A stretch of DNA of 64,000 nucleotides, taken from positions 1,184,001 to 1,248,000 of the forward strand of contig OZ245015.1 of the NCBI GenBank assembly GCA_965223705.1, in the 5' to 3' direction. The notes under the pieces are model-generated. The model had not been told where the DNA came from. It ran no database searches and saw only the letters and a program-made list of their open reading frames with translations. Origin of the DNA: Myxococcota bacterium. GTDB lineage: Bacteria; Myxococcota_A; UBA9160; UBA6930. This document shows positions 12,934-36,165 of the stretch, one piece after another. Both the position numbers and the translations under genes were made by a program. Each line of letters starts with the position of its first letter. The first letter of the stretch is position 1.

Positions 12934-12978
12934 CCGGTTGTTCCGCCAGGAGCACCGCCGGGTAGCCATGTTCGGATG

Positions 12979-13011
<33 letters not shown>

Positions 13012-13246
13012 CACCCTAAGATGAGATCTCCCTGGAACTTCGGTTCCCTGAAGGGCCGTCCGAGACGAGGACGTCGATAGGTCGGAGGTGGAAGCGCAGC
13101 AATGTGTGGAGCTGACCGATACTAATCGCCCGTGAGGCTTGACCAAAGCCTTTGCAGTCGGCGCGACCCATGAGATGAACGTGACCCAGAAAGCTATTTG
13201 GTTGATCAAAGACCGGCGGCACGAGCCGCGGTTTTGAACACGGTTT

Positions 13247-15636: not shown

Positions 15637-15726
15637 CGACCTCTTCGACGCGCACCCCCGAAACGCCTCGATGAGGTGATATTAACACGAGGCAACGGTC
15701 CGAGACTGACTCCGAGTCGGGCGAGG

Positions 15727-16701
15727 CTAGTTGCGAGCTAGGTCTCGACCGGCACCGAACTGCGCTCGGCAGTGGAGACCGCTCGGGATGGCGAGATCGG
15801 GATTCGCCAAGGTGAGCTCTACGTTGAACGTATCGCTCGTCGCATCAATGATCGGGTCGACCACATCGATTGTGGCTCGCAACCGCCGACGCAGGGGGGC
15901 TTCGGCCTCGATCTCGGCGCTCGCTCCCGGTTTGAGCGAGCCGTACAGGTGACTCGGCACGACGACGCGCACCCGCAGTGGGTCGAGGCGCACGATCTTG
16001 ACGATCGGAGCGTCGCCCACGCGCTCCCCTTCGAACTTGAGCTGTTCGACGACGACGCCGTCGATCGGGCTCGTGAGACGTCGCCGGTTCGCGTCCGCGT
16101 AAGCGCGTTGCAACTCGAGTTGGGCAATGCGACGTCGATCGCGCGCGAGTTCGAGTTCCAGCTCCGCGAGCTTCACATCGGTTTCCGCCTGGTCGCGCGC
16201 GTCCACTGAGATCGCACGCCCGGCAAACATCTCGCCGCTGCGCTCGTTCTGTCTCTGCTCGAGTTCGAGCTGCGCTTCGCGCGTACGCACTTCGCCGGTG
16301 GTTTGCGCGCGTGCTTTCGCGACGGCCACTTGCGCCCACTCGACGCTCGATTCGAGCTCGGCGATGACTTCACCGGCTTCGACGGGTTCGCCTCGGGTCA
16401 CGTATAGCGACGAGAGTACGCCTGGAACCGGAGCCCCCAATTCGACGACGCGATCGGGCTCGATCACACAGTCGAGGGCTTCGGCACCGAGCGGTGTATC
16501 GGGAAAGTCCGGGACAAACGGGGCGGGGTTGCGCGAAGAATCCGTTCCAACGGGCGGAAGCGTTGTCGAGACGGCAACGGAGACGTCGGTCGGCACTTCG
16601 CGGGGTTTCGCCTGTTCGACAATCGCCCAGGCCAGGCACAGCGCGAGGGTGGCCCCAACGACAGCGATTCGCTGGCCCATGGTGTCTTCGATCGGTCCCA
16701 A
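15727..16701 (-). CDS. HlyD/RND-type periplasmic adaptor (membrane fusion protein)
   Basis: N-terminal TM, lipoyl halves (APVPGVL..V..GE.V.AGE; SPIDGVV), coiled-coil hairpin, DPIIDATSDTF, PSGLHC. Confidence 0.85.
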   Translation of the reverse strand: MGPIEDTMGQRIAVVGATLALCLAWAIVEQAKPREVPTDVSVAVSTTLPPVGTDSSRNPAPFVPDFPDTPLGAEALDCVIEPDRVVELGAPVPGVLSSLYVTRGEPVEAGEVIAELESSVEWAQVAVAKARAQTTGEVRTREAQLELEQRQNERSGEMFAGRAISVDARDQAETDVKLAELELELARDRRRIAQLELQRAYADANRRRLTSPIDGVVVEQLKFEGERVGDAPIVKIVRLDPLRVRVVVPSHLYGSLKPGASAEIEAEAPLRRRLRATIDVVDPIIDATSDTFNVELTLANPDLAIPSGLHCRAQFGAGRDLARN

Positions 16702-16713
16702 AGAGGTCCTCGC

Positions 16714-18735
16714 CTACTCCGTACCACCCGCGAACGCGAACCGTTGCCGGCGGCCCTCCTCTTCGCGAAGGACCGCGTTTCGCTCGGCAGCGTGTCTTCT
16801 TTCAACGGCAACTTGGGCGTAAGAATTGAGCAGGGATCCGATCTTTGAGGTGAGTTTCAGCGCCGAGATCCCGCGAGAAGCCGCAATTCGCAGGATTGGC
16901 GGGGCGAAAACCTCCCGGAGCAGTCGGTCGTCCAACGACAGGAGAACCTCGTACCGGCCGGGATCCCCACGACGTCCGGAGCGGCCGGCCAGCTGACGGT
17001 CGATGCGCGCGGAATCCCCGCGACCCGTAGAGAGCACGAACAGTCCGCCGGTCTCGAGAACACCGTCGCCCAAGCGGATGTCGGTGCCGCGCCCAGCCAT
17101 GTTCGTCGCAACCGTCACGGCACCGGGTTGGCCGGCGACTCCGATAATGTCGGCTTCCTCGCGGTGAGTTGATGCGTTGAGGAGGCGGTGCGTCACACCG
17201 GCTTTCGCGAGCCAACGACTGACGGCGAGGGAAGCTTCGACAGTCTGGGTGCCGATGAGCAGCGGTTGCCCGGTCTTCCGCAGCTCCTTTACCCGAGCGA
17301 GAACCGCACGTTCTTGTTCGGCGCTGTTGCGGAACACGCGCTCGCCGAGGTGCACGCGCCGCACTGGACGCGCCGGCGGAACGCGGACGACCGCAAGCTC
17401 GTAGACCCTCGACAGCTCGCGCGCGACTTCGCGTGCCGTGCCTGTCATGCCTCCGAGTTGTCGGTAGCGCCGATAGAACTGTTGAAAACTGATGCGCGCG
17501 AGCGTCTCTTTGCCGGCGGTGGTTTCGCAGGATTCTTTGCACTCGATGAGCTGATGCAGACCGAGCTCCCACGATCGGTCGGGCAGTGCTCGTCCTGTGC
17601 GCGGATCGATGATCGAAACCCGACCCTCGTCGACCAAGTAGTCGATGTCGCGCCGGAAGAGGTGAAGCGCTGCCAGGGCCAAGTCAATGAGCTCACGCAC
17701 CGTTTGCGGGCGAAAATTCCGAAGCGCTGTTGAAGCGAGGTCCCGCGCGACCTCGGGTAGCGCCGCATCGAAAACCAGCGCGCGCTTTCCTTTTTCGTCG
17801 AGCTCGAAGTGCTCTCCTTCCCGCAACGAGCCCGCCAGTGCGAGGGCGGCCTCGTACGCCTCGCGGGTAAACCGATCGGGTCGTTCTTGGGAGAGGATCA
17901 ACGGTGTTCGCGCCTCGTCGATGAGCACGTGATCCGCTTCGTCGATGAGCGCGAAACACAGCCCCCGCAAGAGCGGCGCTTCGGCCGGTCCGCTTTCCCG
18001 CAAAGCCGCCATGGCGCGTTCCGCAGGCGTTCCGGCACCCGGAATCCGTCCGGCGGTCCGATCGCGCAAGTAATCGAACGCGAGCTGTTGGCCGGTCGTA
18101 TAGACGATCGCCTTGGCGTAGGCCGCGCGTCGGGCCCCTTCGTCGAAGTCATCCGCCGTGACGGAAGCCACTTCGAGCCCGAGTGCACCGTAGATCGGGC
18201 TCATCTCCTTCGCGTCGCGCGCAGCGAGGTAGTCGTTCGAGGTAATCACATGCACGGGACAGCCGGCGAGTGCGGCGGCACTGGCGGGCAACGTTGCCGA
18301 TAGGGTCTTGCCCTCGCCAGTTGCCATTTCTGCGATCCCGCCCCGGATCATGATCCAGCCGGCGAGGAGCTGGGTGTCGAGCGGGCGCAAACCCAGCGTG
18401 CGCTCTGCGACTTCTCGCGTGAGGGCGAAGCTGCGAATGAGAAGGGTTTGTTCAAAGCCGCGGCGATGGAGGGCCGCGCGGAGCTCGGTCGCTGCCGCCG
18501 TCAGCTCAGCGTCGCTCGCGTCGCGAAAGGCTTCTCCGGCGGCGCCGATCGCTCGCACGACGTCGTCTAGCGCGCGGCGTTGAAAGCGCCTGGCGCGACG
18601 GCGCGCGGCGAGCATCCGCCCGATGCGGTGATCGAAGCCCCGCTCGATGCGCTCACGGTTCTCCGGGTAGGGATCGCTCCGCGTCGGCCTCGGAGCCTGC
18701 TCCCCGCGCTCTTTCGTCGCCCCGTGGCTAGACAC
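16714..18735 (-). CDS. SecA paralogue (short, ~673 aa; DEAD motor)
   Basis: EMATGEGKT Walker A, VITSNDYLAARDA, IDEADHVLIDEARTPL, GMTGTA, ATNMAGRGTDI, RIDRQLAGRSGRRGDPG; GTG start overlaps the upstream stop. Confidence 0.9.
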   Translation of the reverse strand: MSSHGATKERGEQAPRPTRSDPYPENRERIERGFDHRIGRMLAARRRARRFQRRALDDVVRAIGAAGEAFRDASDAELTAAATELRAALHRRGFEQTLLIRSFALTREVAERTLGLRPLDTQLLAGWIMIRGGIAEMATGEGKTLSATLPASAAALAGCPVHVITSNDYLAARDAKEMSPIYGALGLEVASVTADDFDEGARRAAYAKAIVYTTGQQLAFDYLRDRTAGRIPGAGTPAERAMAALRESGPAEAPLLRGLCFALIDEADHVLIDEARTPLILSQERPDRFTREAYEAALALAGSLREGEHFELDEKGKRALVFDAALPEVARDLASTALRNFRPQTVRELIDLALAALHLFRRDIDYLVDEGRVSIIDPRTGRALPDRSWELGLHQLIECKESCETTAGKETLARISFQQFYRRYRQLGGMTGTAREVARELSRVYELAVVRVPPARPVRRVHLGERVFRNSAEQERAVLARVKELRKTGQPLLIGTQTVEASLAVSRWLAKAGVTHRLLNASTHREEADIIGVAGQPGAVTVATNMAGRGTDIRLGDGVLETGGLFVLSTGRGDSARIDRQLAGRSGRRGDPGRYEVLLSLDDRLLREVFAPPILRIAASRGISALKLTSKIGSLLNSYAQVAVERRHAAERNAVLREEEGRRQRFAFAGGTE

Positions 18736-20866
18736 CGAGTCGATCCAGCAGCAAGCGCCGGAGGCCACGCGCGACGCGCACGGCCAGAGCCTCACGCCCG
18801 TGGTCGAACAAGACGTATACCCGGCTGCCGATCTCCGCGTGAGCGGGCGAGATGGCGAGAACCAGGTCGAGCTGAAAAACGCGGTCGAGCGTTTGCAGCG
18901 CGTCGGGATCATCGGGGTCGACGGGGAAACGGCCGCCGCCCTCGCTTCCCAGCGCGCGCGTCGGCAACCGGTAGGACGCGGCGGGGACTTCGCGCTTGAG
19001 CGCCGCATCGTACGTCTCGGAAAGATCTGTCGCGAACCGCACGCGAATGCGATCCGCGCGCTCCCGGACCATCGCGATTTCGTCCTGAGACACGACCACG
19101 CGAACGGTGGGCGTATTTTCGTCGGTGACGAACCCGATGACATCGCCCTTACGCAACAAGCGCCCGGATAGATCGCGACTTCCCGGGAGGACGAGGTTGC
19201 CCGATTCGGGGCTCTTCACACTGAGCGACGCGACGTCTTTTTCGACCCGTCGCAGCTTCTCTTCAGCGGCTTCGATTTCATCGTCGATCTGGCGAACCCG
19301 AAGCGGGTCGGACTGCAAGGCGGCTGAGCGCTCGGCGTGGAGCACGCGGAGCTCGGCTTGCGCGACCGTGAGTCGCGCCGTCAAGAGCGGATCCTCGGTC
19401 TCGATCACGGTTTCAAACTTCTCGACCTTGGAGCCGTCGAGCCTCTGGAAGAACCGGACGAAGCCGTCCGTATTCACGCGAATCTCCCGCCCCGGCGGCG
19501 CCCAGACAACTCCTTCGGCGCGCGTCATGTTCGGCACCGGGAACACGCACACCAAGGTGATGAGGCCGCCGGCCACGGCGGCCGCAGTCGTGACGGCGCG
19601 CGTCCGGCGATGCATGAGTTCGGGGCTTGTCGCGAGATATCGGACCACGCGAGCCGCGGGGAGGCCGAATTGTTGGACACCGAAGTAGAGGACGAGCAGG
19701 ACGCCGGCCGTGACCCACACCTCGCCGACGATGATCGCGATCGCCGTCAGGATCGAGATTCGGTAGAGGAAGGACAACAGACCGTAGGCCGCGAGCCAGC
19801 CTTCCTCGTCGGGTGCGTCCGCCGGGCTCTCGCTCTCGCGAAGTTGGAGGATCCAACGCTTCGCCAAGTAGACCCAGTACCGGCTCGAGCGCTGTCCGAG
19901 GTTCGGAATGCCGATGAGATCGGTGAGGACGTAGTAGCCGTCGTAACGCAGGAGTGGATTCGCATTGAACACGACGGTCGAAGCCGCACCGAGCCAAACG
20001 AGCTGCCAAGCAAAGGTCCGGAGACCGCCCGGCTCGAGCGAAAGCCAGAGAAACAGAGCGGCGGAAGAGATGAGGACTTCGACGGCAATACCGGCGGCGG
20101 CAACGGCGACGCGTTTTCGCCGACTCGGAAACACGGCCGACGCCGACGCGTCGACGTACGGCATCGGGAACAGGGCGAGGAGCATCACACCCGCTTCGTG
20201 GACCGCACCACCGAAATAGCGTGCGACCAACCCGTGACCGAGCTCGTGGAAGAGCTTGAGCAGGAGATACGCCAGCACCAGGGCGGGGAGGTTTTCCGCC
20301 GCCAAAATGCGCTCGCTCGTCGCGTGGGTGAGATCCTGCCAGTGCATCATGGCGGCGACGGCCGCGAACGCGATCAGTGCGGCGGCAGCCAACATCGGTA
20401 GCGGACGACACACGACGCGCGCGATGGGCAACAGGCGAACGAGTAGGGCGTCGGGATCCACGAGCGGAATCCGGATCGCCAACGGGTTCGTGCGTTCCTT
20501 CCGACGTTTCGTCCTCTGCTTCTGGAATCGCTCACTGAGCTCGTCCCCTGCGTGGGTCTCCGCGCGACGCAGGAGTTCCGCGCCGTCGAGCCGCGCGAGA
20601 AGGTCGATCGTCTGATCTTGCGTCGGAGTGCGATCCCCGAGCTCGGCTTCTGCCTCGCGGTAGATCTCGTCGAGCGTCCGGCGACCGTCAAAGCACCGAA
20701 TGATGGGATGGGCTTCCGCCGGGTAGCGGTGATGTCGGCCGCTTAGCGTGTCTTCGAGGACATACCAGTCTCGGCCCCGCACGGGTTGGCGAATACTCCG
20801 TACGTGACTTCGGAGCTCTGGGCGCAGGTTGGCCACCCGGTACCAATCCGCGGAGTGTTGTTTCAC
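18728..20866 (-). CDS. peptidase M50 (site-2 protease) fused to a C-terminal HlyD-like adaptor domain
   Basis: HELGH zinc motif, NANPLLRYDG, multiple TMs, C-terminal lipoyl/coiled-coil region; GTGA overlap with the upstream gene. Confidence 0.87.
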   Translation of the reverse strand: MKQHSADWYRVANLRPELRSHVRSIRQPVRGRDWYVLEDTLSGRHHRYPAEAHPIIRCFDGRRTLDEIYREAEAELGDRTPTQDQTIDLLARLDGAELLRRAETHAGDELSERFQKQRTKRRKERTNPLAIRIPLVDPDALLVRLLPIARVVCRPLPMLAAAALIAFAAVAAMMHWQDLTHATSERILAAENLPALVLAYLLLKLFHELGHGLVARYFGGAVHEAGVMLLALFPMPYVDASASAVFPSRRKRVAVAAAGIAVEVLISSAALFLWLSLEPGGLRTFAWQLVWLGAASTVVFNANPLLRYDGYYVLTDLIGIPNLGQRSSRYWVYLAKRWILQLRESESPADAPDEEGWLAAYGLLSFLYRISILTAIAIIVGEVWVTAGVLLVLYFGVQQFGLPAARVVRYLATSPELMHRRTRAVTTAAAVAGGLITLVCVFPVPNMTRAEGVVWAPPGREIRVNTDGFVRFFQRLDGSKVEKFETVIETEDPLLTARLTVAQAELRVLHAERSAALQSDPLRVRQIDDEIEAAEEKLRRVEKDVASLSVKSPESGNLVLPGSRDLSGRLLRKGDVIGFVTDENTPTVRVVVSQDEIAMVRERADRIRVRFATDLSETYDAALKREVPAASYRLPTRALGSEGGGRFPVDPDDPDALQTLDRVFQLDLVLAISPAHAEIGSRVYVLFDHGREALAVRVARGLRRLLLDRLGV

Positions 20867-22650
20867 AGCCAAAAGCCCCAGGTCGCCAGGCGGAACCAGT
20901 CCGCCGCGCGATGCGAGGCGACCCAGTACAAGGAGCGGCGCCCGATCTCAATTTTCGCGAGGCCTTCCATTCCCGGCCGAAGTCCGAGCGTATCGTCGGC
21001 GAGGCCGGCTTCGACCCGGAAAAAGTTCCGGCCTTCTTCGGCCGAGGCCATCGGTGTCACCCGTTCGATGCGGAACGGGTGTTGTTGATGGGGCAGGGCC
21101 GTCAGGGCCAGTCGGCCCGTCTGCCCGATGGCGACGTGCGCGACGTCTCGCTCGTCGACTTCGAGCGTGACCCGATAGGAATCCAAGGGGGCGATTTCGA
21201 AGAGGACTTCGCCTCGCTCCACCGGCGCTCCGAGTGAACGACTGAGGTCGCCCTTGACGATCACCCCGTGAAAAGGGGCGACGAGGCGACTGCGTTCGAT
21301 CTGCACTTCGAGCGCCGCGAGTTCCGCGTCGGCTTGCGCCAGGCGAGCGGCCAGGATTTTCGCTTCCGCGTATTCGCGGCGCGCCCGGGCTTGGCGCTGC
21401 TCCTTTCGGGTTTGCGCGCGGCGCGTCTCCCACTGGACTTTTTCGAGCTCGAGTTCCGTCGCATCGAGCGCCGCGATCAATTCGCCTTCCTCGACGACAT
21501 CGCCGGCTCGGGCCCGGGCCTCGCCGATGTAGCCGTCGCTCGCCGCAACGACCGCTCGTTGAACGGTGCCTTCAAGAACGGCGTCGGCGGATACGCGATG
21601 AGGAACGGGAAGGAACGCGAGGAGGAAGAAGAGGAGGGCGCCAACGGCTGTGGCCTTGCCGACGAAGCGGTTCGGTCCGAGCCAATCTCTGAGTTTCTCC
21701 GTCGCGCGCGCTCTCAGGATGCGCAGAGCCGGTTGCGATTCGCGCTGTCGCGTGGCGAGGACTGGTCCGATCATGGTCGCTGCCGCGTCGCAGAGAGCCT
21801 CCGTCTGCGCGGTGAAGGCCGAGTCTTCGGCCGTCTCGACGAGAACGACGCCACTCGGCACCGCCGTCGAGCGTTCGGAATCCGAACCGCCGAAGGGAAA
21901 CGTCGCTACCACACCGCCGGCGTGCTCTTTCTGGAGAGACGCGTGAGCTGGGAACGTTCCCGCCTCGGCCTCTTCTCCCGGATATCGGATCGGCTCTCCC
22001 TCCGACAGGGTTTCTTCCATCGCTTGCTCGATCGCCGATGCGAGGTCGCTGCTGCGATCGAATTCCGCCGCGTGGGAAATTGCGTGGAGCTCGATTCGCG
22101 TACCCAGCCGAAAGCCGAGGCTCACGCGCGTCAGTCCACCGCGACCGGCGAGCTCCGTGACGAATCGGACGAGAGACGGCTTGAGCTCAGGCGTGTCCGT
22201 CGTCATCGCGAGCAACTCGAGCACGTCTTTCGCCGTCGATGCGCCTTCGCTACTGCCGGTCCGCAAGGTTTCGAGCCACACGGCTCCGCACAAGAGATGC
22301 TGGATCACGGCTTGTTGTGTCGCCGCCGGACGGTGTGGCATGTCGACGACGAGCCCGCCGCGGGTTTGCCCGCTGCTGTGGAGCGGGACGGCCAGCGTGT
22401 CGAAGATCTTGTCGTCGCGCTTGCGCGTCTGGGGATGGAGAGCGGGCTTACCGCTTCCCGCGACCCGCCGCGCTTCGGCGACGCGAGCGGGTTCGGGTTT
22501 TCCGACGCCCTCCGGCCACGCGATCACGTGGCCCCCCGGTGACGGATCGAGGACGGCGACGGCGCGATCTGCGCCCGGCGTCATCGAGCACAACACATGA
22601 AGCCAGCGCGCGGCGAGCGCCTCGGGAGGGCTCGGCACGGAAGCGTTCAA
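20863..22650 (-). CDS. HlyD-family adaptor with N-terminal GAF-like domains
   Basis: Cytoplasmic GAF-like region (LAVPL, AMEE..., GVVLVE), one TM, then lipoyl-coiled coil-lipoyl (APFHGVI, GAPVERGEVLFEIAP, LRPGMEG). Confidence 0.8.
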   Translation of the reverse strand: MNASVPSPPEALAARWLHVLCSMTPGADRAVAVLDPSPGGHVIAWPEGVGKPEPARVAEARRVAGSGKPALHPQTRKRDDKIFDTLAVPLHSSGQTRGGLVVDMPHRPAATQQAVIQHLLCGAVWLETLRTGSSEGASTAKDVLELLAMTTDTPELKPSLVRFVTELAGRGGLTRVSLGFRLGTRIELHAISHAAEFDRSSDLASAIEQAMEETLSEGEPIRYPGEEAEAGTFPAHASLQKEHAGGVVATFPFGGSDSERSTAVPSGVVLVETAEDSAFTAQTEALCDAAATMIGPVLATRQRESQPALRILRARATEKLRDWLGPNRFVGKATAVGALLFFLLAFLPVPHRVSADAVLEGTVQRAVVAASDGYIGEARARAGDVVEEGELIAALDATELELEKVQWETRRAQTRKEQRQARARREYAEAKILAARLAQADAELAALEVQIERSRLVAPFHGVIVKGDLSRSLGAPVERGEVLFEIAPLDSYRVTLEVDERDVAHVAIGQTGRLALTALPHQQHPFRIERVTPMASAEEGRNFFRVEAGLADDTLGLRPGMEGLAKIEIGRRSLYWVASHRAADWFRLATWGFWL

Positions 22651-24461
22651 CGCGCTTTATTCTTCTGACGAAGAAGTTCGTTCCAGCGCTCGGCGGGCAT
22701 CGGTGGACTGAAATAGAAGCCCTGCACGTGATCACACCCGGATTCCACCATGAAGTCGAGCTGGTCGCTGCGCTCGACTCCTTCGGCGACGACCGACAGG
22801 CCCATCCCGTGCGCCAACGCGATGATCGATCGAACGATCGAGACGTCGTCGCCGTCATCGGGGACGCCTTTGACGAAGGAGTGATCGATCTTGAGTTCGC
22901 TGATCGGAAAGCGTTTGAGATAGGCGAGTGAGGAGTAGCCCGTTCCAAAATCATCGATGGAGATTCGTACACCCATCTTGCGGAACTGACCGAGCGTGAG
23001 TGCAGCATGCTCCGGATTCCCCATCAGAATGCTCTCGGTGAGTTCGAGGGTGAGTCGTTCGGGTTCGAGTTGTGTCTCCTCGAGCGCCGTTGCGAGTACG
23101 TGCCGGAGATCGCCGTACTGGAACTGCTCGGCCGAGACATTGACGGCCACACTGAGCGGGAAGTCCGTAAATGCGCCCCAGGACTTTGCCTGTCGACAAG
23201 CTTCGCGGATCGCCCAGCTCCCGAGGCTCCGAATCGTTCCGGTTTCCTCTGCCAACGGAATAAAGCGGGCCGGTGAGAGCTCGCCCAACTTCGGATGAAC
23301 CCACCGCATGAGCGCTTCCGCCCCGATGACTTTCTTCGTGCGGAGATCGATCTTGGGCTGGTAGTGAAGGCGGATCTCGTTCCGATCGAGAGCGCCCCGT
23401 AGCAGGTTCTCGAGCTGCAGTCGCTCCGCCGACTCGGCGTTCTGGCGCGCATTGTAGAACTCGTAGCCGCCGCCACTCGATGAGCCGGCGTGGGTCATGG
23501 CGATCTCGGCGTGGCTCAAGAGTTCCCCGGCTTCGCCGCTGTCGTCCGGGTAGAACGCGATCCCCACGGTGCAGCCGAGGTGAAGGGATTGGCGATCGAG
23601 CAAGAACGGCCGTTCGAAACTCGCAATGACGCGCTTTGCGATCCGGCGCGCATCCTCGCTAGAGCGAGCCCACGGGAGGAACATGGCGAACTCATCGCCG
23701 CCGACACGCGCGATGATGCCGTTGTCGCCGAGCGCGTCTCCGGGTCGTACGGATTCTTCCAAACGCGTCGTCGCGGACTTGAGCAAGAGATCGCCCGCAT
23801 CCCGTCCCAGGGCGTCGTTGATCTTCTGGAAGCGCTGCAAGTCGATATACAGGAGGGCGCAAGAAGCGCGATCGTGGTCGATCCGGCGCAGCGCGCGCTG
23901 CATCTGTTCGGTCAGGGAGAGCCGATTGGGAAGCCCGGTCAGCGGGTCGAAGTACCGCAGGCGGTCTTGGTAGGCCTTCGCGGCGAGCGTGTTGCGGAGG
24001 CGAAGGGCCAACTCACTGGGGTCGACGGGTTTTCCCAGAAAATCCGTGGCACCGAGTTCGAGCGCTTTCAGTTTCGTGTCCGCGTCAGTCGACGACGTCA
24101 GGATGATGATGTTCGAATACTGCAGGGCTTCGTCGTTGCGAACCGCTTGCAGAATCTCGAACCCACCCACGTGGGGCATGTTGAGATCGAGGAGCACGAC
24201 GTCGGGACGGACCCGCGCCAGGGTTTCGAGTGCGTTCCGGGAGTCGGTCTCGCGGACGAAATTGCGATAACCCGCGTCCTGCAGGGCCATTTCCAGGACA
24301 TCGATGGTCGTCTCCTCGTCGTCGACCATCATGACGGTGGCCGATTCGAGGAGGCTCTCTGAGGGACCGCGCAAATCCGGGGTTGTCGCCCGGTTGGCGT
24401 CGACACGTAGAACGGAGGCTTCGGCGAAGCCCGTGTTCTCGGTCTTGTCCTGATCAGACAT
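22647..24461 (-). CDS. response regulator diguanylate cyclase/phosphodiesterase (REC-GGDEF-EAL)
   Basis: VDDE...LLDLNMP...KP receiver; DPLTGLPNR, RVGGDEF; EALMRW, DDFGTGYSSL, AEGVE, QGFY. Confidence 0.93.
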   Translation of the reverse strand: MSDQDKTENTGFAEASVLRVDANRATTPDLRGPSESLLESATVMMVDDEETTIDVLEMALQDAGYRNFVRETDSRNALETLARVRPDVVLLDLNMPHVGGFEILQAVRNDEALQYSNIIILTSSTDADTKLKALELGATDFLGKPVDPSELALRLRNTLAAKAYQDRLRYFDPLTGLPNRLSLTEQMQRALRRIDHDRASCALLYIDLQRFQKINDALGRDAGDLLLKSATTRLEESVRPGDALGDNGIIARVGGDEFAMFLPWARSSEDARRIAKRVIASFERPFLLDRQSLHLGCTVGIAFYPDDSGEAGELLSHAEIAMTHAGSSSGGGYEFYNARQNAESAERLQLENLLRGALDRNEIRLHYQPKIDLRTKKVIGAEALMRWVHPKLGELSPARFIPLAEETGTIRSLGSWAIREACRQAKSWGAFTDFPLSVAVNVSAEQFQYGDLRHVLATALEETQLEPERLTLELTESILMGNPEHAALTLGQFRKMGVRISIDDFGTGYSSLAYLKRFPISELKIDHSFVKGVPDDGDDVSIVRSIIALAHGMGLSVVAEGVERSDQLDFMVESGCDHVQGFYFSPPMPAERWNELLRQKNKAR

Positions 24462-24559
24462 GAAGCCACCGTTCGGGTGCGCAACGCACCCGCCCACCTG
24501 ACCCATCGGCCCACGGGAGCGCTCCCTTGAGCCTGTAACTAATTGTTTTCACGTAGGAT

Positions 24560-27325: not shown

Positions 27326-27395
27326 AGATTGGACTACCCGGGGGTGGGACGTTCCTCTGCCCGTATCGGCAGCCGGCCAACCGAGCCGTAGAACG

Positions 27396-30300
27396 CTAGG
27401 ACGGTGCTCGCGTGGTGTCCGGGCGCTTCCGCTCTTCCGAATCCGCGCCTTCTTCGTCCTGCTCGGCTTCGAGGAGCTCCTCGAGGGATTCGCCGTCTTC
27501 GGTCATACCCCCGGCGAGGCTCGCCAGAATCGGCGTCGGGTCCATCAGCTGCCACGCCGGCATGGACGAGACGAGACTCGCGAGGAGCAAGCCACCGCGC
27601 GTGAGCCAGACGACGTAGCCCACCGAGAGGCCGGTCGTCACCGCGAACGCGGAACCGACCACGGTCTGCTCGATTTCCAGCGCGCCGGTGAATTGATCTC
27701 GGAGCGCGTCGAGTTCACCCAACAAGCTCTCCTGGGCATTCGCGAACAAGAGCTCACTGAGCGAGACCTCGGGAAGAACTTTTTCGATCAGTTTTTCGAC
27801 CAGTGCCCGCACCGCCGGGTGATCGACGTCGAGCGTGGCCGAGGCGTCCACCGTCGCGGCCGCCGCTTCGAACGTGAACGCCGTTGTGGTCGCCGCGTCG
27901 GATTCGTCGCGCTGAGCCTCTTCTAGAATGCCGCGACCCAGACGATCTTGGCCTGATTCCGTCGACGCGACCGGTCCGGCGACAGGCCCCGGGGCCTCGG
28001 CTGCGCTCTCTCCCGAGTCTTCGCCAGCGGCCTCCTCGCCGCCGCTCTCACCGACATCCGGCGTCGGAGCCGGCGCGGGCGGTGGGGTGGGGGTGTTGCC
28101 GACGAATGTACCGATGCGGGAGTACGCCCCACTGATAGCGGTGGTACCGCCGTGAATACTCGCGTCGCAATTCGTTCGGTTCTCGATTCCACCGTTCGTC
28201 GAGGAAAATCCCCCGCTGTAGGTGTTGTCGATGGCCCGCAACACGAGAGGCGGGGGCGTTCCGGCGAAACCCGGCTGCGGTACGAACCGCACGCGCGCGT
28301 TCGCATGGAGGACCAGCGCGGTCGCATCGTCGCCGACGCTACCGATGTCGGCCCAGTTCGTTCCGTCCGTCGAGTATTGCCAACTGCCGCCGCTCCAGGT
28401 GGCGCTCGGGTTTCCAACCACTGCAACACCCGCGAGGCTCGATCCGGCATCGACGTCGCCGATGGCGCCGCCGAGGAGCGCCGCAATCCGCTCGCCGAGG
28501 GGCTTCGCCTGACCGTTCGGAAGGGGAGCGAGCCCAACGCTCGCGGCGCCGGGTGCGTCGTTGACGGCGCTCGTCGAGACCGAGGCGACGTTGCCGGCCA
28601 CCGAGAAGGGCGTCTGACCGCCGCGTATCGACGCGTCCGCTAAGCCGCCGGCGACTCCTTGGGATTGATCCCAGCCGTGGAACGCCAAGTTACCGCCGCC
28701 GGCGTTCATGCCGTCGGGGCGGAAACGGACGAGGTCGGTAGCGCGCAGGAGTTTCGCCGCGCTGGTGGAAGTTCCGGCGAGCAGGTTCCAGTTCGCACCA
28801 CCGTCGGTGGAGTACTGCCAAAAACCGTTCATCGCATTGGTCGTCGTGACGGCAATGCCTTCGACCGACAGCACGTCCGGGTCGCTCAGCGAGCCGCCCA
28901 AGATCGACGCCACGGTGACGCCGCCGTTCGCGACGTCGTCCTCGGTGATCCCCGGGAGTGCAGGGGAAGCGTTGGCCAGCGTCGGCGCATCGTTGACGGA
29001 TGAGGTCACCACGGATGAGGTGGTGTCCGAATATGTCCCGCCCGACGAGTCCTGGACCCAGATCGTGAACTGCGTGGTTTCGCTCAAGCCGGGTTGCACG
29101 CGATTCGGGGTGGGCGTGAAGACGAGGCTTCGGATCGCGCCCTCGGCCGCGGCCGCTGTGCCCGTGAATTGGTAGACGCCGCCCCCGAGGTTGGAGAAGC
29201 CGCCGCCCGCCAGGGTGCCCTTCGCGCCGTTGTCGAGCCGGACTTCGACGACGAGATTCTCCGCGTCGAGGTCGCTGAACGTAACGGTTCCGAACGGCGC
29301 CATGGGAGTGTTGTCGGTCGCGGGTTGTCCCGCGGCGGTGCCGCCGATGACGGTCGCGTCGTTGATCGAAGTGGAGACCACCGTGGTGGTGTTGTCGATG
29401 ACCGGGCCGCTGCTGTCGGTCACGGCAATCGAGAAGGTCGTGGTCTCGGTGAGGCCCGGCGCGACGCGGTTTTCCGTCGGGTCGAAGACGAGTGCGCGGA
29501 TCGCAGTTTGGGCGGACGCGGCAGTTCCCGAGAACTGGTAGTGCCCGCCGCCCAAGTCCGTGAAGCCGCCTCCGCTGAGCGCGCCCTTCGTCGCGGTGTC
29601 GAGCTGGACGTCCACGGTCAGGATCTCGCCGTCGGGTTCGGCAATCGTGACACCCGAGAACGGGGCCAGTGTCGCGTTGTCGTTGACCGATTGACCGGAG
29701 ACAGCTCCTCCGATCGACGCCGGGTCGCCGACGGAGGTCGACACGACCGTCGTGGCGTTGTTCGAGACCGGTCCCGCGCCGTCCGTGACGGTGATCGTGA
29801 ATGTGGTCGTTTCGGTAAGGCCGGGCGCGACACGATTCTCGGTGGGATCGAAGGTCAGGTTGCGGATGGCGGCCTGCGCGGCAGCCGCCGAACCCGTGAA
29901 TCGGTAGCTACCACCGCCGAGGTCGGTGAAACCGGCGCCGGTGAGGACGCCTTTCGCGCCGTCATCGAGTTGAACGTCGACGACGAGGTTCTCGCCGTCG
30001 GGGTCGGCAATCGACGCTCGAAAACGGCGCGATCGTCGCGTTGTCGTTGACGGGCGTTGGCCACCGTGCCACCGATCGGTCGCGTCGTTGATCGAGGTCG
30101 ATACGACCGTCGTGGCGTTGTTCGAGACCGAACCCACGCCGTCCGCCACGGTGATGGTAAATCCGGTGGTCTCGGTGAGCCCCGGTGCGACTCGATTCTC
30201 CGTCGGGTCGAAAACGAGCGCGCGAATCGCGGTCTGCGCTGCGGCCGCTGTGCCCGTGAACTGGTAGAGCCCGCCGCCGAGATCGGTGAAACCGCCGCCG

Positions 30301-33300
30301 GTCAGTACGCCTTTGGCCCCGTCGTCGAGCTGGACATCGACGACCACGTTCTCCGCATCGGGATCGGCAATGGAAACGGTCGCAAACGGAGCGATGGAAG
30401 CGTTGTCGTTCACCGCCTGATTCGCGACGGTGCCGGCGATGCTCCCAGAATCGTTGATCGAGGTCGAGACGACGGAGGTCGTGTTGTCGATCACCGGTCC
30501 GCTGCTGTCGGTGATCGTGATGCTGAACGTCGTGGTTTCCGTGAGCCCGGGGGCCACGCGATTGTCGGTCGGGTCGAACACGAGCGCGCGGATCGCCGTC
30601 TGCGCCGCAGCCGCTGTGCCCGTGAACTGATAATGCCCTCCGCCGAGGTCGGTGAAACCGCCGCCGGTCAGTACGCCTTTCGCGCCGTCGTCGAGCTGGA
30701 CATCGACCACGACGTTCTCGGCGTCGGGGTCGGCGATGGTGACGGTGGAGAAGGGCGAGATCGAAGCGTTGTCGTTCACGGCCTGGTTGGCGACGGTGCC
30801 GCCGATGGCGCTCGGATCGTTGACCGAGGTGGAGATCACCGGTGGCGTTGTTCGAGACCGGCCCACCGGAGTCCGTGACCTTGATCTCAAAGCTGGTCGT
30901 TTCAGTGGCACCCGGTGCGACTCGATTCTCCGTCGGGTCAAACACGAGCGCGCGAATCGCGGTCTGCGCTGCGGCCGCTGTGCCCGTGAACTGGTAGAGC
31001 CCGCCGCCGAGATCGGTGAAACCGCCGCCGGTCAGTACGCCTTTGGCCCCGTCGTCGAGCTGGACATCGACCACGACGTTCTCGGCGTCGGGGTCGGCGA
31101 TGGTAACGGTGGAGAAGGGCGAGATCGAAGCGTTGTCGTTCACGGCCTGGTTGGCGACGGTGCCACCGATCGCGCTCGGATCGTTGACCGACGTCGAGAT
31201 CACCGTGGTGGTGTTGTTCGATACCGGGTCGATGCCATCCGAAACGGTCACGGAGAACGTCGTGGTCTCGGTCAGGCCGGGTGCCACGCGATGGTCCGTA
31301 GCATCGAAGATGAGGGCACGGATCGCGGTTTGCGCTGCGGCCGCCGACCCGGAGAACTGGTAGAGGCCGCTGCCCATGTCGGTGAACCCACCGCCGGCAA
31401 GCGTTCCCTTCGCGGGGTCGTCGAGCTGGATCTTGATGGTCAAGGCGTTGCCGTCGACGTCGTCGACGGTCACCGCCGCGAACGGGGCGATGTTCTGATC
31501 GTCGTCGACGGTCTGACCCACTTGGAAGCCGCCGATGCTCGGCGCCGTGTTTGCGGCGGGGGCGACGAGCGTGAACGCGTCGAGCTCTTCTCCGCCCGCA
31601 CCTCCCAACCCGACGTCGGCGCCTTCGAACACGAGCTCGGCCGTGGCGCTGCTGTTGCCGACGCCGGCCCCGAGCTCGGTCGCCGTCACGTGGAGCGCAA
31701 AGATGTCGTTTTCCGTGACGGACACGTTGTTCGTTCCCAACGTATCGCTGCTGTGCACGGTGGCCAGCAGCGTGCCGGCCGCGAACGTTCGCCCGCCAAT
31801 CACGGTCGCGGATTCAAGCAGCTCGAGGCCATGGAGATGCTGATCGATGCCAAAGACGTCGCCTTCGAGCAATTTGCTCGCTGTGCCCGTCGTGTTTCCG
31901 GCGCCCACGGTCCCTGTCTCGAACACCCAGACGTCTTCATCATCCGAGCCACCGCTCCGCGTAAAGAGGAAATCACCTGCGTCCACGGTGTAGTCGCCGA
32001 TCGTCGTGTTCGATTCGACGAGCGTGATGCCGCGGATGTTGTTGCCGCCAGCGGGGGATTCGAGGAGCATCGCGAAGGTCCCGTCGCTGTAGTCGCCCGG
32101 CGCGACGGGTCGATAGACGAACACATCCTCATCGGTCTGCGGAAGCGAGTTGGAAAAGCCCGGGTCGAGGACCGGTGCCGTCGACGACAACGTCCCATTC
32201 GACGAGAGGGACATCAGAAGGTCGCCCGCCTTCAACTGAAAACCGGCGACCACCATATCCCGACTGACGTAGTGGACGGCGTTCGTCTCGGCACCGTTCG
32301 CGAAATCGACGGCGACCGAAAAGTTGCCGCCAGAGACGCCCGGTTCGATCTGGACGTCGGAAATTTGGACAACGTCGTCGCTGTCCCACGACGTCGCGCC
32401 GTTCGTCGGCGCACCGGACACGTTGCCTTTCGTGGAGATCCAGAACGACTCTCCGGAGCTTCCGACCGGACTGTCCTGATCCCACAGGAACAAGAAAGGC
32501 TGGCCGATGATGGTTCCGGCGCCCCCCTCGACTTCGGTGGGGGTCCCCCAGGTGCTCCCGTCCCACAGGGTGAAGTTTACGTCCAGCAAGCTGTCGAGTG
32601 TCGAGGCCATGATCCGGTCCGAGTCCGGATCGGAGCTCAGCGTGATCGTGCTCGTGACGGCGAAGCTGCCGAGATCGAATGCGACGGATTCACCCGACCA
32701 GGTGCCTCCGCTCCAGGTCTTGTAGTAGACGGTCGAACTGAATTCGGAGTACAGCGCCATCGCGTCGCCACTCTGGCTCTCAAACGCGACAGCGATTCCG
32801 TACGTGCTCGTGCCGGCACCATCGGTGGTTCCCAACTCGGAAGCTTCCCAGGTACTGCCGTCCCAGACGCTGAAGAACTTGTCGCGATCACTGGTCGTCG
32901 CGCCCATGATGATGCGGTCGCTGTTGGGGTCCGACGCAGCAACGGTCCATTGCGTGACGCCCGTGACACTCGCGTGGGCGGGAATGCTGGATTCACCGCC
33001 CCAGGAGCTCCCGTTCCACATCCGGTAGTAAGCGTTCTGGTCCGCCTTGCCGTAGATGACCATGGCGTCGCCACTTTGTTGCTCGTATGCGACCGAAATA
33101 TCGGTGTTGCCCACGGCGCCGGTGCCGTCGCTTAGATAGGTCCCGTTGCCCCAGCTGTCTCCGTCCCATACCAGCGCGTAGTCTTCGTTGGATGCGTTGG
33201 TCACCGCGAGCACCATCTCGTCGCTCCCCGGGCTTGTGGCGAGCTTCATATGGCTCATCTCGCCGTTGTAGGAGGGAGTGTTGATGGCAGTTGCCGCGGA

Positions 33301-34416
33301 CCACGATGTTCCGTCCCACGTACGGAAGCTGAGGCCGTTGCTCCCCGTCGTGCCGTTGTTGTAGACGAGCATGGCATCGCCGCTCGATGACTCGTAAGCG
33401 ACGGCGAAACCCCAGCGGTTGGCGTCCGTAACGGTGGCGAAATCGTTGAACGCGAACGCCGTCCAGTTCGAGCCGTCCCACATCTGGCCGCTCAGGTTCC
33501 CGCTCGAGTCGACGCCGACGACGATTTTTTCGTCTCGCGTGGGCGCTTCGGCGCCGTCCATGGTGCGCCACGGCCCGCCGATGTTCGCGGTATTGGTTTC
33601 CGGATCGAGGGCCGCACCATTCAGCTCGCTCGTCTGAGGGGTCGGCACGCTGTTTTCGGACCAGATCGCCGTTCCGTCGAGCGTTCCGACAAAGCCGGCT
33701 TGCGCTGCTGCACTGAGCGCGTTCGAGGTCTCGACGCTCCCGTACTGGAACTCGAGCTGCCAATCGCCACCGCGGGTTGTGGCGCCCGTGAGGTCATCGC
33801 TCGCTGCGACATCGGCGCCGGTGACTTCCGCCAGGTCCGAAAGGAACGCGCGTCCGTCGTCGGTCGACGCGAGGTTGCAGCCGTAGAGGAGGAGGTCCGC
33901 TTCGCCCGTCAGCGCGCGCTGCCACGTTCCAACCCCCGCATTCGGATCTCCGAGATCCGCGTGCGTGAACCAGTCGTTGCCGAGCAGCAAGCCCTCTTCA
34001 CTGCCGTGAGAAAGGATGTGAAGCGCATCGAGGTCGCCCGCGTAGCCGGCCAGCACCCGACTGATCTGTGCCGTGCCCGATTCTTGATCGTTGAGCAGAA
34101 GGACGTCGAATTCGACGTTACTCGTGCTCTTCGATCGCAGGTCCGCGAACAGCGCGTCGGCATTGTCGAGACGTCCATCGATCACGACGAGCTCCCGCCG
34201 GGGCTCCGTTTCTGCGGACACGACCGAAGTTCCGTGCTCGCTCTCGATGGGCGCCGTTCCGATCGGGTCGCTCGGCGGCGCCGCGATCTCCGCGGGCAAC
34301 ACCGGGAGATCGGCCGAAAGGAGGAGCCTCGGCTCGAGCGGCTCGAGAAGCGGGCGCCGCCGGCGGGTCGGGTTCCGGCGGGGTGAGGGAGGGCGCGTGC
34401 GTCGTTTCCTGGACAT
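27396..34416 (-). CDS. giant repetitive extracellular protein (LEPR-XLL leader, DUF4347-like domain, WDG repeats, 120-aa repeats, hydrophobic C-terminal domain); reading frame broken by apparent 2-bp deletions
   Basis: [20 protein letters not shown]...LLLYGCNLA...[12 protein letters not shown]...GGDWQLE; ORFs 29962-34440 and 27396-30941 carry the same repeat and join at ~30840; C-terminal [26 protein letters not shown]. Confidence 0.85.
28990..31545 (-). repeat. about seven tandem ~360-bp (120-aa) intragenic repeats
   Basis: Recurrent [25 protein letters not shown]...[55 protein letters not shown]; near-identical DNA in the central copies. Confidence 0.88.
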
Positions 34417-34563
34417 ACAGGGGGGATATCGACCCGACAAACCGCACTGCTAAGACATATCGGGTGACTAAAGCCACGTTCGCTGCAGTCCGTCGGGAGA
34501 TTCGCATCGGCCTTACGCATGAGTTGCTCCAGTTCTGCCGATCACCGACCGAAACCGAGAACT

Positions 34564-36165
34564 ATGAACCGGACCGCCGGAAGATTCCGCGTGCTGGCTG
34601 CGCACGGCGGAGTTTTCGCCCTTGCGACGTTGCTGGGCGTCAGTTGCGCGTGGGGCCCCCGGGAAACGACTCCCGAGGAAGTCCGCGAACGAATCGCGCG
34701 GGATCGCGAGGCCTTGGCGTTGGCCGAGCCCGTCCCGGACGAGCTCACCCTGTACGAGGCCGTCGCGCGCGCCGTCTACCAGAACCTGGAGTTCCGCGCG
34801 GCGCTGCTCGAAGAAGCCCTGGCCCACGCCGAGTTTGAGGAAGGACGCCTCGACCTCCTTCCCAGTGTTGTCGCGACGAACGAGTACTACGGACGGAACA
34901 ACCGACTCGCGTCCGTGAGCGAGTCGGTGCTCACTGGGAACCAATCTCTCGAACCTTCTACATCATCCGATCGCCACGGCTGGCGATCCGATGCGACCGC
35001 CGCGTGGAGCGTTCTCGATTTTGGCGTCGGCTACTTGCGATCGCGTCAGGCGGCAAACGAGGCATTGCTCGCCCGGGAACGCCGAGCCAAGGCGCTGCAG
35101 GATCTTGTTCTCGATGTGAGCGTGGCGTATTGGCGGGTCGCGGCGTCGCAGCGGCTGCTCGAGGATATCGGCACGGTTCGGGCCGACCTTCGCGATGCCG
35201 CGCGCCAGTCGCGAGAGCTGTCCGACAAGCGCCTGCTCGACCCCGCCAACGCGACGGGGTATCAGCGCGACATTCTCGAACAGATGCGGACCTTGGATGC
35301 GATCGAGCGCGACGCGGCGAACGCGCGAATCGAGTTGGCGCGCGCGATCAATGCGCCGGCGAACGCGCGCTTGCGCGTCCGCTCGCTCGACCCGGCGCGC
35401 GCCCGGATTCCCGAACTGAAGGTGCCCGTCGAGCAGCTCGAGTACGACGCGTTGCGCCTGCGTCCCGAGTTGCGCGGCGCCGACTACGAGCACCGCATCT
35501 CACGGCTCGAGGTTCGCCGGGCGCTGCTACAGGCATTGCCCGGATTGGAACTTCGCGTCGGTTACAACCGCGACACCAACGACTTCCTCGTGAATGACGG
35601 CTGGTGGAACTACAGCGGCACCCTCTCGAAAAATCTCGTCGAACTGGTCACCGCGCCGAAGCGCATCGAAGTCGCCGAGGAGCGCTCGACACTGGCCGAG
35701 GCACGACGCTTGGCGCTCAGCACCGCGGTGATGGCTCAGGTCCAACTCGCGTATCGAGACTTCCGCCACGCCCAGGCACAAGCCGAGATCGCTGCTCATC
35801 GGAGAGCGCTCGAAGCGGACGCCAGCGCGGTCACCGAGCTGCGCTTCGCGGCGGGGACGGCTTCGGGGCTCGACGCCGCCCGCGCTGCCGGACGCCGCCG
35901 CGTTGCGGACCTGCAATACGCGAACAGCTACGCCCGGGTGCGCGAGTCGTTTGCCCGTCTCCAGAACGCGGTGGGGGAGGCGCCGGCGCCGCGCTTCGAG
36001 CACCTCGAAGACCTCGCCGCGCTGACCGCCTGGGCCGAGGTCTGCCTCTCGGATTGGGAGCGCCGCGCGGCGTACGGGCGTGGCTCGGCTCGTCTGGCCT
36101 ACAGGAATCTCGCGCCGTTCCGCTGGCACTACGGCGCGCAGCAACCCGCCGTCTCCTCGAAATAA
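34564..36165 (+). CDS. TolC-family outer membrane efflux protein (probable lipoprotein)
   Basis: Lipobox-like LGVSC, LTLYEAVARA...NLE, DLLP, WSVLDFGVGY, V..AYWR, A...RPELR; divergent from the giant protein gene. Confidence 0.87.
   Translation: MNRTAGRFRVLAAHGGVFALATLLGVSCAWGPRETTPEEVRERIARDREALALAEPVPDELTLYEAVARAVYQNLEFRAALLEEALAHAEFEEGRLDLLPSVVATNEYYGRNNRLASVSESVLTGNQSLEPSTSSDRHGWRSDATAAWSVLDFGVGYLRSRQAANEALLARERRAKALQDLVLDVSVAYWRVAASQRLLEDIGTVRADLRDAARQSRELSDKRLLDPANATGYQRDILEQMRTLDAIERDAANARIELARAINAPANARLRVRSLDPARARIPELKVPVEQLEYDALRLRPELRGADYEHRISRLEVRRALLQALPGLELRVGYNRDTNDFLVNDGWWNYSGTLSKNLVELVTAPKRIEVAEERSTLAEARRLALSTAVMAQVQLAYRDFRHAQAQAEIAAHRRALEADASAVTELRFAAGTASGLDAARAAGRRRVADLQYANSYARVRESFARLQNAVGEAPAPRFEHLEDLAALTAWAEVCLSDWERRAAYGRGSARLAYRNLAPFRWHYGAQQPAVSSK

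Follow-up and report, generated by a model that had tools for sequence, protein, structure and literature searches.

Type I secretion substrates carry an uncleaved C-terminal signal, usually with GGxGxD repeats, and in the LapA/LapBCE/LapD/LapG system giant adhesins take this route under the control of cyclic di-GMP (c-di-GMP). A further module was described from comparative genomics by Kamneva, Poudel & Ward (PLoS One 2015; PMC4452313). It has four core proteins, lacks an ABC (ATP-binding cassette) transporter and is sometimes linked to an OEP-family channel in the outer membrane. In the portions of that paper available to us, the SecA_DEAD protein is proposed as the ATPase and the M50 protein as a possible pore, the biological role is called completely unknown and no cargo is named. 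The same four core proteins were found in a 64,000-nt stretch of a Myxococcota bacterium genome (G000:C1:1184001-1248000, hereafter the window; genome of 4.56 Mb, 95% complete), where they adjoin a gene for a giant LEPR-XLL/DUF4347 protein. A first-pass annotation of this DNA had likewise named similar neighbourhoods from comparative genomics, with no mechanistic study known to it. In a literature search that did not cover subscription journals the module appeared only in the 2015 paper, and no later or mechanistic study was found, nor any work on the export of LEPR-XLL or DUF4347 proteins. A 2026 paper places DUF4347 among biofilm-protein domains and gives no export route.

The locus belongs to this conserved module of second SecA, M50-HlyD, GAF-HlyD and small HlyD, with a TolC-type channel added. 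All of the features by which the 2015 module is recognised are present, that is a second SecA_DEAD protein, an adjacent M50/HlyD protein, a GAF-HlyD together with a small HlyD/biotin-lipoyl protein, and no ABC transporter. We lean, by a modest degree, towards the view that the module is a dedicated envelope-spanning exporter for the adjoining giant protein, the export roles being assigned from gene content, motifs, folds and co-occurrence. Genes were called from the listing of open reading frames (ORFs) and from Pfam and NCBIfam scans of the window ORFs. Seven of them form a minus-strand run from 34416 down to 15727, and the TolC gene is divergent. The features are as follows.

34519..36165, plus strand: TolC-family outer-membrane channel, 548 aa (Pfam OEP)
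27396..34416, minus strand: giant gene of the candidate cargo (LEPR-XLL/DUF4347), ATG at 34416, frame open from 34440
34309..34350, minus strand: LEPR-XLL leader motif, cargo residues 23-36 (NF012209 LEPR-8K, E 1.6e-5, above cut-off)
33679..34191, minus strand: DUF4347 domain of the cargo (Pfam, E 9e-46)
27399..27758, minus strand: conserved C-terminal module of the cargo, ~100 aa (alignment A4)
24560..27325, minus strand: hybrid histidine kinase (Pfam PAS-HisKA-HATPase_c-REC-Hpt)
22647..24506, minus strand: REC-GGDEF-EAL protein (Pfam)
20863..22650, minus strand: GAF-HlyD (Pfam HlyD_3, HlyD_D23)
18728..20872, minus strand: M50-HlyD (Pfam Peptidase_M50)
16714..18735, minus strand: short SecA paralogue, 673 aa, GTG start at 18735 (SecA_DEAD)
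15727..16701, minus strand: small HlyD-type adaptor, 324 aa (HlyD_3)

Three gene junctions overlap: the stop of the REC-GGDEF-EAL gene overlaps the GAF-HlyD start as TTGA, the GAF-HlyD stop overlaps the M50-HlyD start by 10 nt, and the M50-HlyD stop overlaps the SecA start by 8 nt (GTGTCTAG). Pfam scans of ORFs with high G+C at third codon positions (GC3) found no ABC, RND (resistance-nodulation-division) or MFS (major facilitator superfamily) pump in the window. In the same way, none of the 51 six-frame matches of the HlyB model in the genome, and none of its four RND matches, falls inside the window. The first-pass annotation had described a co-directional gene set with a divergent TolC, overlapping start and stop codons, and three adaptor domains with an outer membrane channel and neither an ABC nor an RND pump; each of these points was borne out in the window. 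A promoter and terminator scan of 15000-34999 is uninformative: it returned 0 promoter-like sites, and the terminator-like ones number 10 where chance alone predicts 14.3.

The short SecA, the M50-HlyD protein and the DUF4347 cargo co-occur tightly. In a set of 225 genomes of the same class, which are kin so that the counts overstate independence, and at score thresholds chosen after the score gaps had been seen, the M50-HlyD profile (E<=1e-20) matched 52 genomes, which define the M50-positive set. DUF4347 at E<1e-20 was present in 37 genomes, all 37 of them within the M50-positive set. The short SecA was present in 44 genomes at E<=1e-125, a threshold that leaves out housekeeping SecA, and 43 of these are M50-positive; the remaining genome is 66% complete. 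Among the 173 M50-negative genomes no strong DUF4347 match was found, and four weak ones were (E 2.6e-8 to 8.7e-4). By hand count, 34 of the 47 strong DUF4347 matches lie within ~25 kb of an M50 match on the same contig, and most of the others sit on short contigs. In 20 class loci, picked for their long contigs from the 52 M50-positive genomes, GAF-HlyD was found directly upstream of M50-HlyD in 20/20, with SecA-like and adjacent small HlyD genes in 19/20 each and DUF4347 in 11/20, with ABC matches in 0/20.

The gene order also holds in other phyla. Fifty distant loci from Burkholderiales-type metagenome-assembled genomes, Amphritea, Verrucomicrobiota, Desulfobulbaceae and Alphaproteobacteria were searched by tblastn with the window proteins. 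GAF-HlyD stands directly before M50-HlyD in all 50, and a SecA-like gene directly after M50-HlyD in 44, the contigs of the other six ending at M50. The small HlyD gene is adjacent in 39/50, and an ABC-ATPase match lies in the flank in 5/50, at 1.4-5 kb from the core. One of the loci, L027 of the culturable Amphritea atlantica DSM 18887, combines the core genes with a giant frame upstream of them and a GGDEF-EAL gene. Neighbourhood and phylogenetic profiling, which the first-pass annotation had put forward as a check, was thus favourable on both co-occurrence and core order. A local iteration with hidden Markov models (HMMs) on the distant loci counted DUF4347 in 3 and TolC in 0, and was not accepted as a measure, since the 10-kb flank cuts many of the giant frames short and the two TolC genes of the genome itself have no mutual tblastn match. 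Seven further ORFs at these loci carry the LEPR motif. At L048 the M50-HlyD and SecA-like matches are each in three pieces, and at G181:C8:593469-595594 the M50-HlyD match is split into three frames; both count, with L072 of G113 (below), as variant or decayed copies.

The genome holds a second full module at C1:1636000-1667000, around the second short SecA (G000:C1:1632642-1667000; L004, L005). Its giant protein of 4,757 aa has DUF4347, cadherin-like, Big_9 and LamG domains. The second locus includes divergent GAF-HlyD, M50-HlyD and SecA-like genes with a PAS-GGDEF gene and a small HlyD gene, as well as a hybrid kinase, a REC-PAS-GGDEF-EAL gene and a TolC gene after the giant gene. There are exactly two DUF4347 genes in the genome, one at each short-SecA locus.

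The SecA paralogue is reduced to a motor. Its Pfam domains are SecA_DEAD (2.5e-90), SecA_PP_bind (1e-21) and P-loop_SecA (8e-48), corresponding to nucleotide-binding domain 1 (NBD1), the preprotein cross-linking domain (PPXD), NBD2 and the start of the scaffold helix, and the motifs GEGKT, DEAD, NMAGRGTD and GRSGRRG are intact. It aligns with SecA structures (E 5e-117) and covers only residues 21-608 of B. subtilis SecA 3jv2. No SecA_SW match was found in it even at E<=1; the wing domain, the two-helix finger and the C-terminal tail are all missing. The two-helix finger is the part that canonical SecA inserts into SecY, so that the paralogue is without the parts used for this insertion. It scores below every NCBIfam SecA/SecA2 cut-off, for instance 553 against 862 for PRK09200 and 476 against 930 for secA2. 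A separate housekeeping secA, which the first-pass annotation had suggested looking for, is present: the genome has three SecA_DEAD genes, two short ones and one housekeeping gene with an open frame of 939 aa, of which 916 aa were scanned as the gene runs off locus L001. The housekeeping protein carries the wing/scaffold domain that the short copy is without (SecA_SW, E 1e-63).

The M50-HlyD protein matches Peptidase_M50 (E 2e-6), its membrane core being of the site-2-protease type with intact zinc-site motifs, HELGH at 209 and NANPLLRYDG at 303, and residues H209, E210, H213, N303, P306 and D311 are invariant in 37 sequences. Its best NCBIfam relative is the daptide HExxH protease NF041824 (E 6e-50), at 170 bits against a cut-off of 300, in a match that starts at model position 24. 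An AlphaFold2 (AF2) model with a predicted local distance difference test score (pLDDT) of 83.8 shows an N-domain, a membrane core made up of helices and a beta-hairpin, and a periplasmic adaptor that contains a long alpha-hairpin. The C-terminal ~270 columns have the fold of an adaptor, or membrane fusion protein (MFP), as judged from Foldseek matches to MexA, MacA and AcrA (E 1e-11), and the profile of the periplasmic part matches MacA, HlyD and LipC. In the N-domain the predicted elements are E24-31, E34-41, E47-50, H52-58, H67-81 and H85-97. Three strands followed by three helices is the order of the RRE (recognition element of RiPPs, peptides made by the ribosome and modified post-translationally) and of PqqD-like domains, and no Pfam PqqD match was found in the protein. 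Complex prediction with M50-HlyD residues 1-125 (A2) and the cargo leader (A3) scored 0.23 and 0.25 against a mark of 0.32 and was used neither way.

The two other adaptors each have a single transmembrane (TM) helix. GAF-HlyD has a cytoplasmic N-region of ~327 aa that is GAF-like, a TM at 328-354 and a periplasmic adaptor domain (HlyD_3 3.7e-16, HlyD_D23 1.8e-15). As to the GAF-HlyD label given at first pass, its HlyD half is clear. The GAF match is weak in the window copy (GAF_3, E 0.012), and that half of the name is taken from the genome's other copy, where the domain is clear (GAF, E 1e-8). The small HlyD protein matches HlyD_3 (5.9e-19), HlyD_D23 (3.5e-17) and Biotin_lipoyl_2 and has its TM at 10-31. 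The TolC protein matches OEP in two repeats (E 5.5e-20) and TIGR01844 below cut-off (E 1e-12), with a hydrophobic stretch at residues 23-44 near its N-terminus. Its gene diverges from the cargo gene across ~100 nt and has no MFP or RND gene beside it in the window, the next gene encoding a short-chain dehydrogenase/reductase (SDR). An OEP gene adjoins the start of the giant gene in 5/5 further class genomes with that side fetched; among the four genomes where the far end of the giant was fetched, it was absent in 0/4.

The giant protein has ~2,340 aa if read as one frame, with an isoelectric point of 4.05, 2 Cys, near-identical tandem repeats of ~122 aa and 0 GGxGxD motifs. The first-pass annotation listed it as a giant LEPR-XLL/DUF4347 protein. 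The gene is indeed there, and in the assembly it is read as two frames, with the GC3 profile and the repeat register placing the switch near 30840, inside a ~122-aa repeat. Contigs from four public runs of one sample were compared with this stretch. One of them, built from the reads of run X1 (202 nt, depth 5), covers 30771-30969 and has two extra bases exactly at 30839/30840, so that both halves of the gene fall in one frame. The frameshift is probably a two-base assembly error and the gene intact, this being one contig that may come from the source sample.

A run of Arg and Lys precedes the LEPR-XLL motif in the cargo leader. In 16/16 readable DUF4347 N-termini a basic run is followed by [LVI]ExxExRxL[LMY]S, and E25, E28, R30, L32 and S34 are invariant in these 16 aligned sequences. 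The leader is disordered in the AF2 model, and in its sequence the cargo N-terminus has no hydrophobic core free of charged residues, such as Sec and Tat signals have. A PDB search with the N-terminus alone gave no match.

Behind the leader, the DUF4347 domain has His137, Gly138 and Cys180 invariant in 16/16 sequences, the His and the Cys each after a strand, and the first 1,192 cargo residues contain no Cys other than Cys180. Searching the PDB by profile brings up 9qpe_G, a DUF4347 protein according to its deposition, with the cargo His/Cys aligned to chain positions 77 and 131. These positions equal Tce1 His186/Cys240 if the chain starts at residue 110, as given in the accessible part of PMC13323088 (Nat Microbiol 2026). 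There, Tce1 is said to resemble the cysteine protease domain of TcdB, with His186/Cys240 aligning with the TcdB dyad, its protease activity not being shown biochemically. In parallel, the AF2 model of the window DUF4347 (pLDDT >83 over residues 71-210) has 9qpe_G as its top Foldseek match (E 4.9e-6, root-mean-square deviation 3.2 A over 153 columns); flavodoxin-like folds, CHAT domains and caspases rank next. Sequence and model together place DUF4347 among the caspase-like folds (clan CD-type), and with its invariant His/Cys pair the giant protein may carry a putative protease head. The two top PDB profile matches of alignment A5, de novo TIM barrels, were disregarded as low-complexity-like repeats.

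At its other end, the cargo has a module without any Pfam match. It combines an amphipathic stretch with two short hydrophobic segments, between which stands R-G-G, and with a P-x-W...D-P motif and a tail of acidic character. A profile built from alignment A4, of four cargo tails from three lineages (the other copies being L004 3215-3574, L021 17469-17828 and L072 1819-2178), matches 31/225 class genomes, 28 of them M50-HlyD-positive. The module shares one giant frame with DUF4347 in at least 8 cases, namely both loci of this genome, G189, G194, G041, G108, G118 and G113. It is a putative membrane anchor or retention signal. Giants at the Burkholderiales-type loci L010, L015, L016 and L020 end differently, in I/V-D/E-W-x-x-R ... 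S-P-F ... N-F-A-D-F, which suggests a second cargo class at these modules.

Signalling genes accompany the module at both loci of the genome, each with a hybrid kinase and a REC-GGDEF-EAL gene. The window kinase has two TM segments (9-33 and 145-169), PAS, HisKA, HATPase_c, REC and Hpt, and its closest paralogue in the genome is the second-locus kinase (39.5% identity). Kinase matches occur at 6/20 class loci and 3/50 distant loci, and in G041 a kinase of the window type directly follows the giant gene. The REC-GGDEF-EAL protein (EAL 2.9e-74, GGDEF 7e-35, REC 1.6e-23) has intact GGDEF, EAL and DDFGTG motifs. GGDEF/EAL matches occur at 10/20 class loci and 12/50 distant loci; for comparison, the whole genome has ~16 GGDEF/EAL sites and 27 kinase sites. 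G194 shares the window order of giant, kinase, REC-GGDEF-EAL and GAF-HlyD, and its GGDEF-EAL protein is orthologous to the window copy (53% identity, support of 100 in the Shimodaira-Hasegawa-like approximate likelihood ratio test, SH-aLRT) in a tree of 23 domains from which the L022 row (22% identity) was dropped beforehand. The link of c-di-GMP genes to the module is thus recurrent, and the tree does not show a single origin.

These elements can be arranged in a mechanism for export of the giant protein. Recognition would take place in the cytoplasm, where the basic LEPR-XLL leader of the unfolded cargo would be read, probably by the RRE-like N-domain of M50-HlyD, and the motor-only SecA paralogue would thread the cargo N-terminus first. 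The conduit would consist of the M50 membrane core with the single TM helices of the two other adaptors, and the three adaptor domains would form a periplasmic tunnel to TolC. Cleavage of the leader would fall to the M50 site, on the model of MpaP, the RRE-fused site-2 protease in daptide pathways; in the available part of Ren et al. (bioRxiv 10.1101/2023.03.08.531785), MpaP removes the leader in the daptide pathway. Finally, the C-terminal hydrophobic module would tether the cargo to the envelope with the caspase-like DUF4347 head outermost, and the hybrid kinase and REC-GGDEF-EAL protein, whose translation is coupled to that of the export genes, would make display or release depend on c-di-GMP. 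The first-pass annotation had seen a distinct export machine here. Co-occurrence, gene order and the lack of a HlyB-type ABC transporter are in keeping with it, and the roles that it gave to the M50 protein (membrane part), SecA (motor) and the giant (cargo) are drawn from gene content. Its core idea, a SecA ATPase and an M50 pore with no ABC transporter, is not new, as it already stands in the accessible part of the 2015 paper (PMC4452313).

Several points weigh against this exporter, besides the kinship of the class genomes and the late choice of thresholds mentioned above. Among the 52 M50-positive genomes, 15 have no strong DUF4347 match and 9 no short SecA at the threshold, and at one locus (L072, G113:C1:4807100-4827099) there is no SecA-like match between small HlyD and M50. 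At the second locus an adaptor gene and an RND pump come after the TolC gene in a CzcCBA-like order, and this TolC may serve the RND pump or be shared. Foldseek with the whole M50-HlyD model returns adaptor proteins only, and no RRE or site-2 protease fold; the RRE-like assignment comes from the order of secondary structure and from the below-cut-off NCBIfam match. The M50 core is likewise a putative inner-membrane conduit, and the members of the module are known from genome comparison. Moreover, the tree does not bring the locus-linked GGDEF-EAL copies together in one clade, and its inner branches are for the most part open. In the M. extorquens arrays considered by Kamneva et al. (PMC4452313, accessible part), only the GAF gene was expressed; by their account the module genes of the culturable Methylobacterium extorquens AM1 are META1p2399-2402.

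Other explanations can account for part of these data. TolC and HlyD-type adaptors beside a giant acidic repeat protein make the usual picture of type I secretion, and the membrane fusion protein (three HlyD-type domains) and the TolC channel (OEP) of such a system are both present, so that its ABC transporter might be encoded elsewhere among the four ABC_membrane exporters of the genome. All four lie away from both loci: one MsbA-like gene beside glycosyltransferases, a pair between an AIR-synthase-like gene and SMC, and one beside a glycosyltransferase at a contig end, with no HlyD-family match found beside any of them. The unlinked ABC transporter, which the first-pass annotation had named as a possible refutation, was also looked for by family model, and no match in the genome reaches the HlyB-type cut-off of TIGR01846 (best 349 bits against 725.55), with none at either locus. 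The cargo does not resemble a type I substrate either, having no GGxGxD repeats, a hydrophobic module and acidic tail at its C-terminus and its conserved tag at the N-terminus, and the SecA paralogue is kept with the module in 43/52 genomes. An ordinary type I system with a distant ABC transporter is accordingly rated very unlikely. Barely credible is the idea of a decaying locus whose cargo is a pseudogene. The window sequence does read the giant gene in two frames, but the read-derived contig joins them (a single contig of depth 5, possibly from the source sample), and all other genes of the locus are intact with conserved catalytic motifs.

Two further explanations keep the module functional and give it another task. 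In one of them, the giant crosses the inner membrane by other means and the module is a processing and control device, in which M50, with or without DUF4347, would trim or release the giant under c-di-GMP in a LapG/LapD-like manner and SecA would be an unfoldase or chaperone. Site-2 proteases are known as proteases, not channels, the closest curated relative of M50-HlyD is a leader peptidase, c-di-GMP genes are embedded in both loci of the genome and at 10/20 class loci, and the hydrophobic C-terminal module could be cut by a membrane protease. Yet without an inner-membrane partner of their own, three adaptor domains and a linked TolC would be hard to explain, a Sec- or Tat-type core is missing from the cargo N-terminus, no HlyB-type ABC transporter exceeds the cut-off in the genome and 0/20 class loci have an ABC match. 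We hold this explanation to be unlikely. It is distinctly less probable that the substrate which the module exports or matures is another one, for instance a small peptide with a leader or a different component of the envelope, beside which the giant would be a co-regulated neighbour. The resemblance of the M50 part to RiPP leader peptidases would fit such a substrate, as would the 15 of 52 M50-positive genomes without a strong DUF4347 match and the presence of DUF4347 inside the 10-kb flank at only 3/50 distant loci. However, many of the distant giant frames run off the flank with their N-termini unseen, and seven further ORFs there have the LEPR motif. All 37 strong-DUF4347 genomes carry the module and 0/173 module-free genomes have a strong DUF4347, while the two modules of this genome are paired one to one by position with its two DUF4347 giants; no RiPP-modifying enzymes were found in Pfam scans of the window ORFs.

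The remainder of the window consists of an rRNA operon together with genes of ordinary metabolism and of repair. The small HlyD gene is followed directly by a gene for a GDSL-type lipase (14641-15636, minus strand) with a weak PEP-CTERM tail (E 0.0028). The 23S rRNA gene (9154-13146, 3,993 nt) holds a group I intron at 11889-12120 (Rfam RF00028, 61 bits), and just upstream of the matched intron core an ORF at 11128-11877 (plus strand) encodes a LAGLIDADG endonuclease of 249 aa (Pfam E 4e-18); group I introns are uncommon in bacterial rRNA. A LigD gene with 3'-phosphoesterase, ligase and primase-polymerase domains adjoins Ku at 48389-51878, forming the bacterial end-joining pair, and a TatC gene is present at 53663-54439.

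If the exporter for the giant protein is real, bacteria of several phyla would have, for some of their largest surface proteins, an export route outside all the numbered secretion systems. It would depend on TolC but not on an ABC transporter, with a SecA paralogue as its motor and a membrane protease as its gate. This would bear on what SecA-type motors can do away from SecYEG and on how c-di-GMP is coupled to surface display outside the Lap paradigm, and giant adhesins would be recognised by an N-terminal leader rather than by a C-terminal signal. A broader proposal, which we make tentatively and place somewhat short of even chances, is a new type of Gram-negative secretion system in which a SecA paralogue and an RRE-site-2-protease-adaptor replace the ABC transporter, combined with a cleavable leader, a three-adaptor tunnel, TolC, a C-terminal tether, a protease head and c-di-GMP control. 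In any event, the parts list of leader, RRE-like domain, protease site, C-terminal module, DUF4347 His/Cys and culturable carriers makes the comparative-genomics note of 2015 experimentally addressable.

Compared with known systems, the locus is nearest to the module of Kamneva and colleagues, from which it differs in that co-occurrence links the LEPR-XLL/DUF4347 giant to the module, the operon includes a pair of c-di-GMP signalling genes and the genome has two full copies. The points added here to the 2015 module are the probable assembly error, the C-terminal module, the caspase-like fold of DUF4347 and the recurrent c-di-GMP genes. Like the Lap system, the locus brings a TolC-type channel and HlyD-type adaptors together with an acidic giant protein made of repeats, c-di-GMP enzymes encoded nearby and a protease that could decide whether the giant is retained or released. 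Unlike it, the locus has no ABC transporter, and its cargo has a conserved N-terminal leader instead of a C-terminal RTX-type signal. The protease is a membrane M50 enzyme, whereas that of the Lap system is the periplasmic LapG; no LapG-like family turned up in Pfam scans of the window ORFs, among which no dedicated LapG search was made. The window GGDEF-EAL protein also differs from LapD in being cytoplasmic and REC-controlled with intact motifs, and it scores 129.6 bits with the LapD model against a cut-off of 1020.

The accessory SecA2 of Gram-positives and mycobacteria (TIGR03714, TIGR04221, TIGR04397) is likewise a second SecA for an exported subset, often of large surface proteins. The short SecA falls below these family cut-offs, has neither the wing/scaffold nor the finger, and is paired with adaptors and TolC, whereas accessory SecA2 is paired with SecY2/Asp proteins or SecYEG. 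The daptide proteases MpaP/DapP (NF041824) have the same order as M50-HlyD, with an N-terminal domain of leader-recognition type followed by an HExxH membrane protease. In M50-HlyD this arrangement is fused to a periplasmic adaptor and encoded beside SecA-like and TolC genes, and its presumed substrate has ~2,340 aa in place of a short peptide. Finally, Tce1 of P. aeruginosa (PA0256, 9QPE), an effector of the H3 type VI secretion system (H3-T6SS), shares the DUF4347 fold, and the cargo His/Cys align with its putative dyad; the cysteine protease domains of TcdB and MARTX are related to the cargo domain through it. In contrast to Tce1, which is a 310-aa effector loaded into Hcp, the cargo domain is the N-terminal head of a giant protein and stands behind a LEPR-XLL leader.

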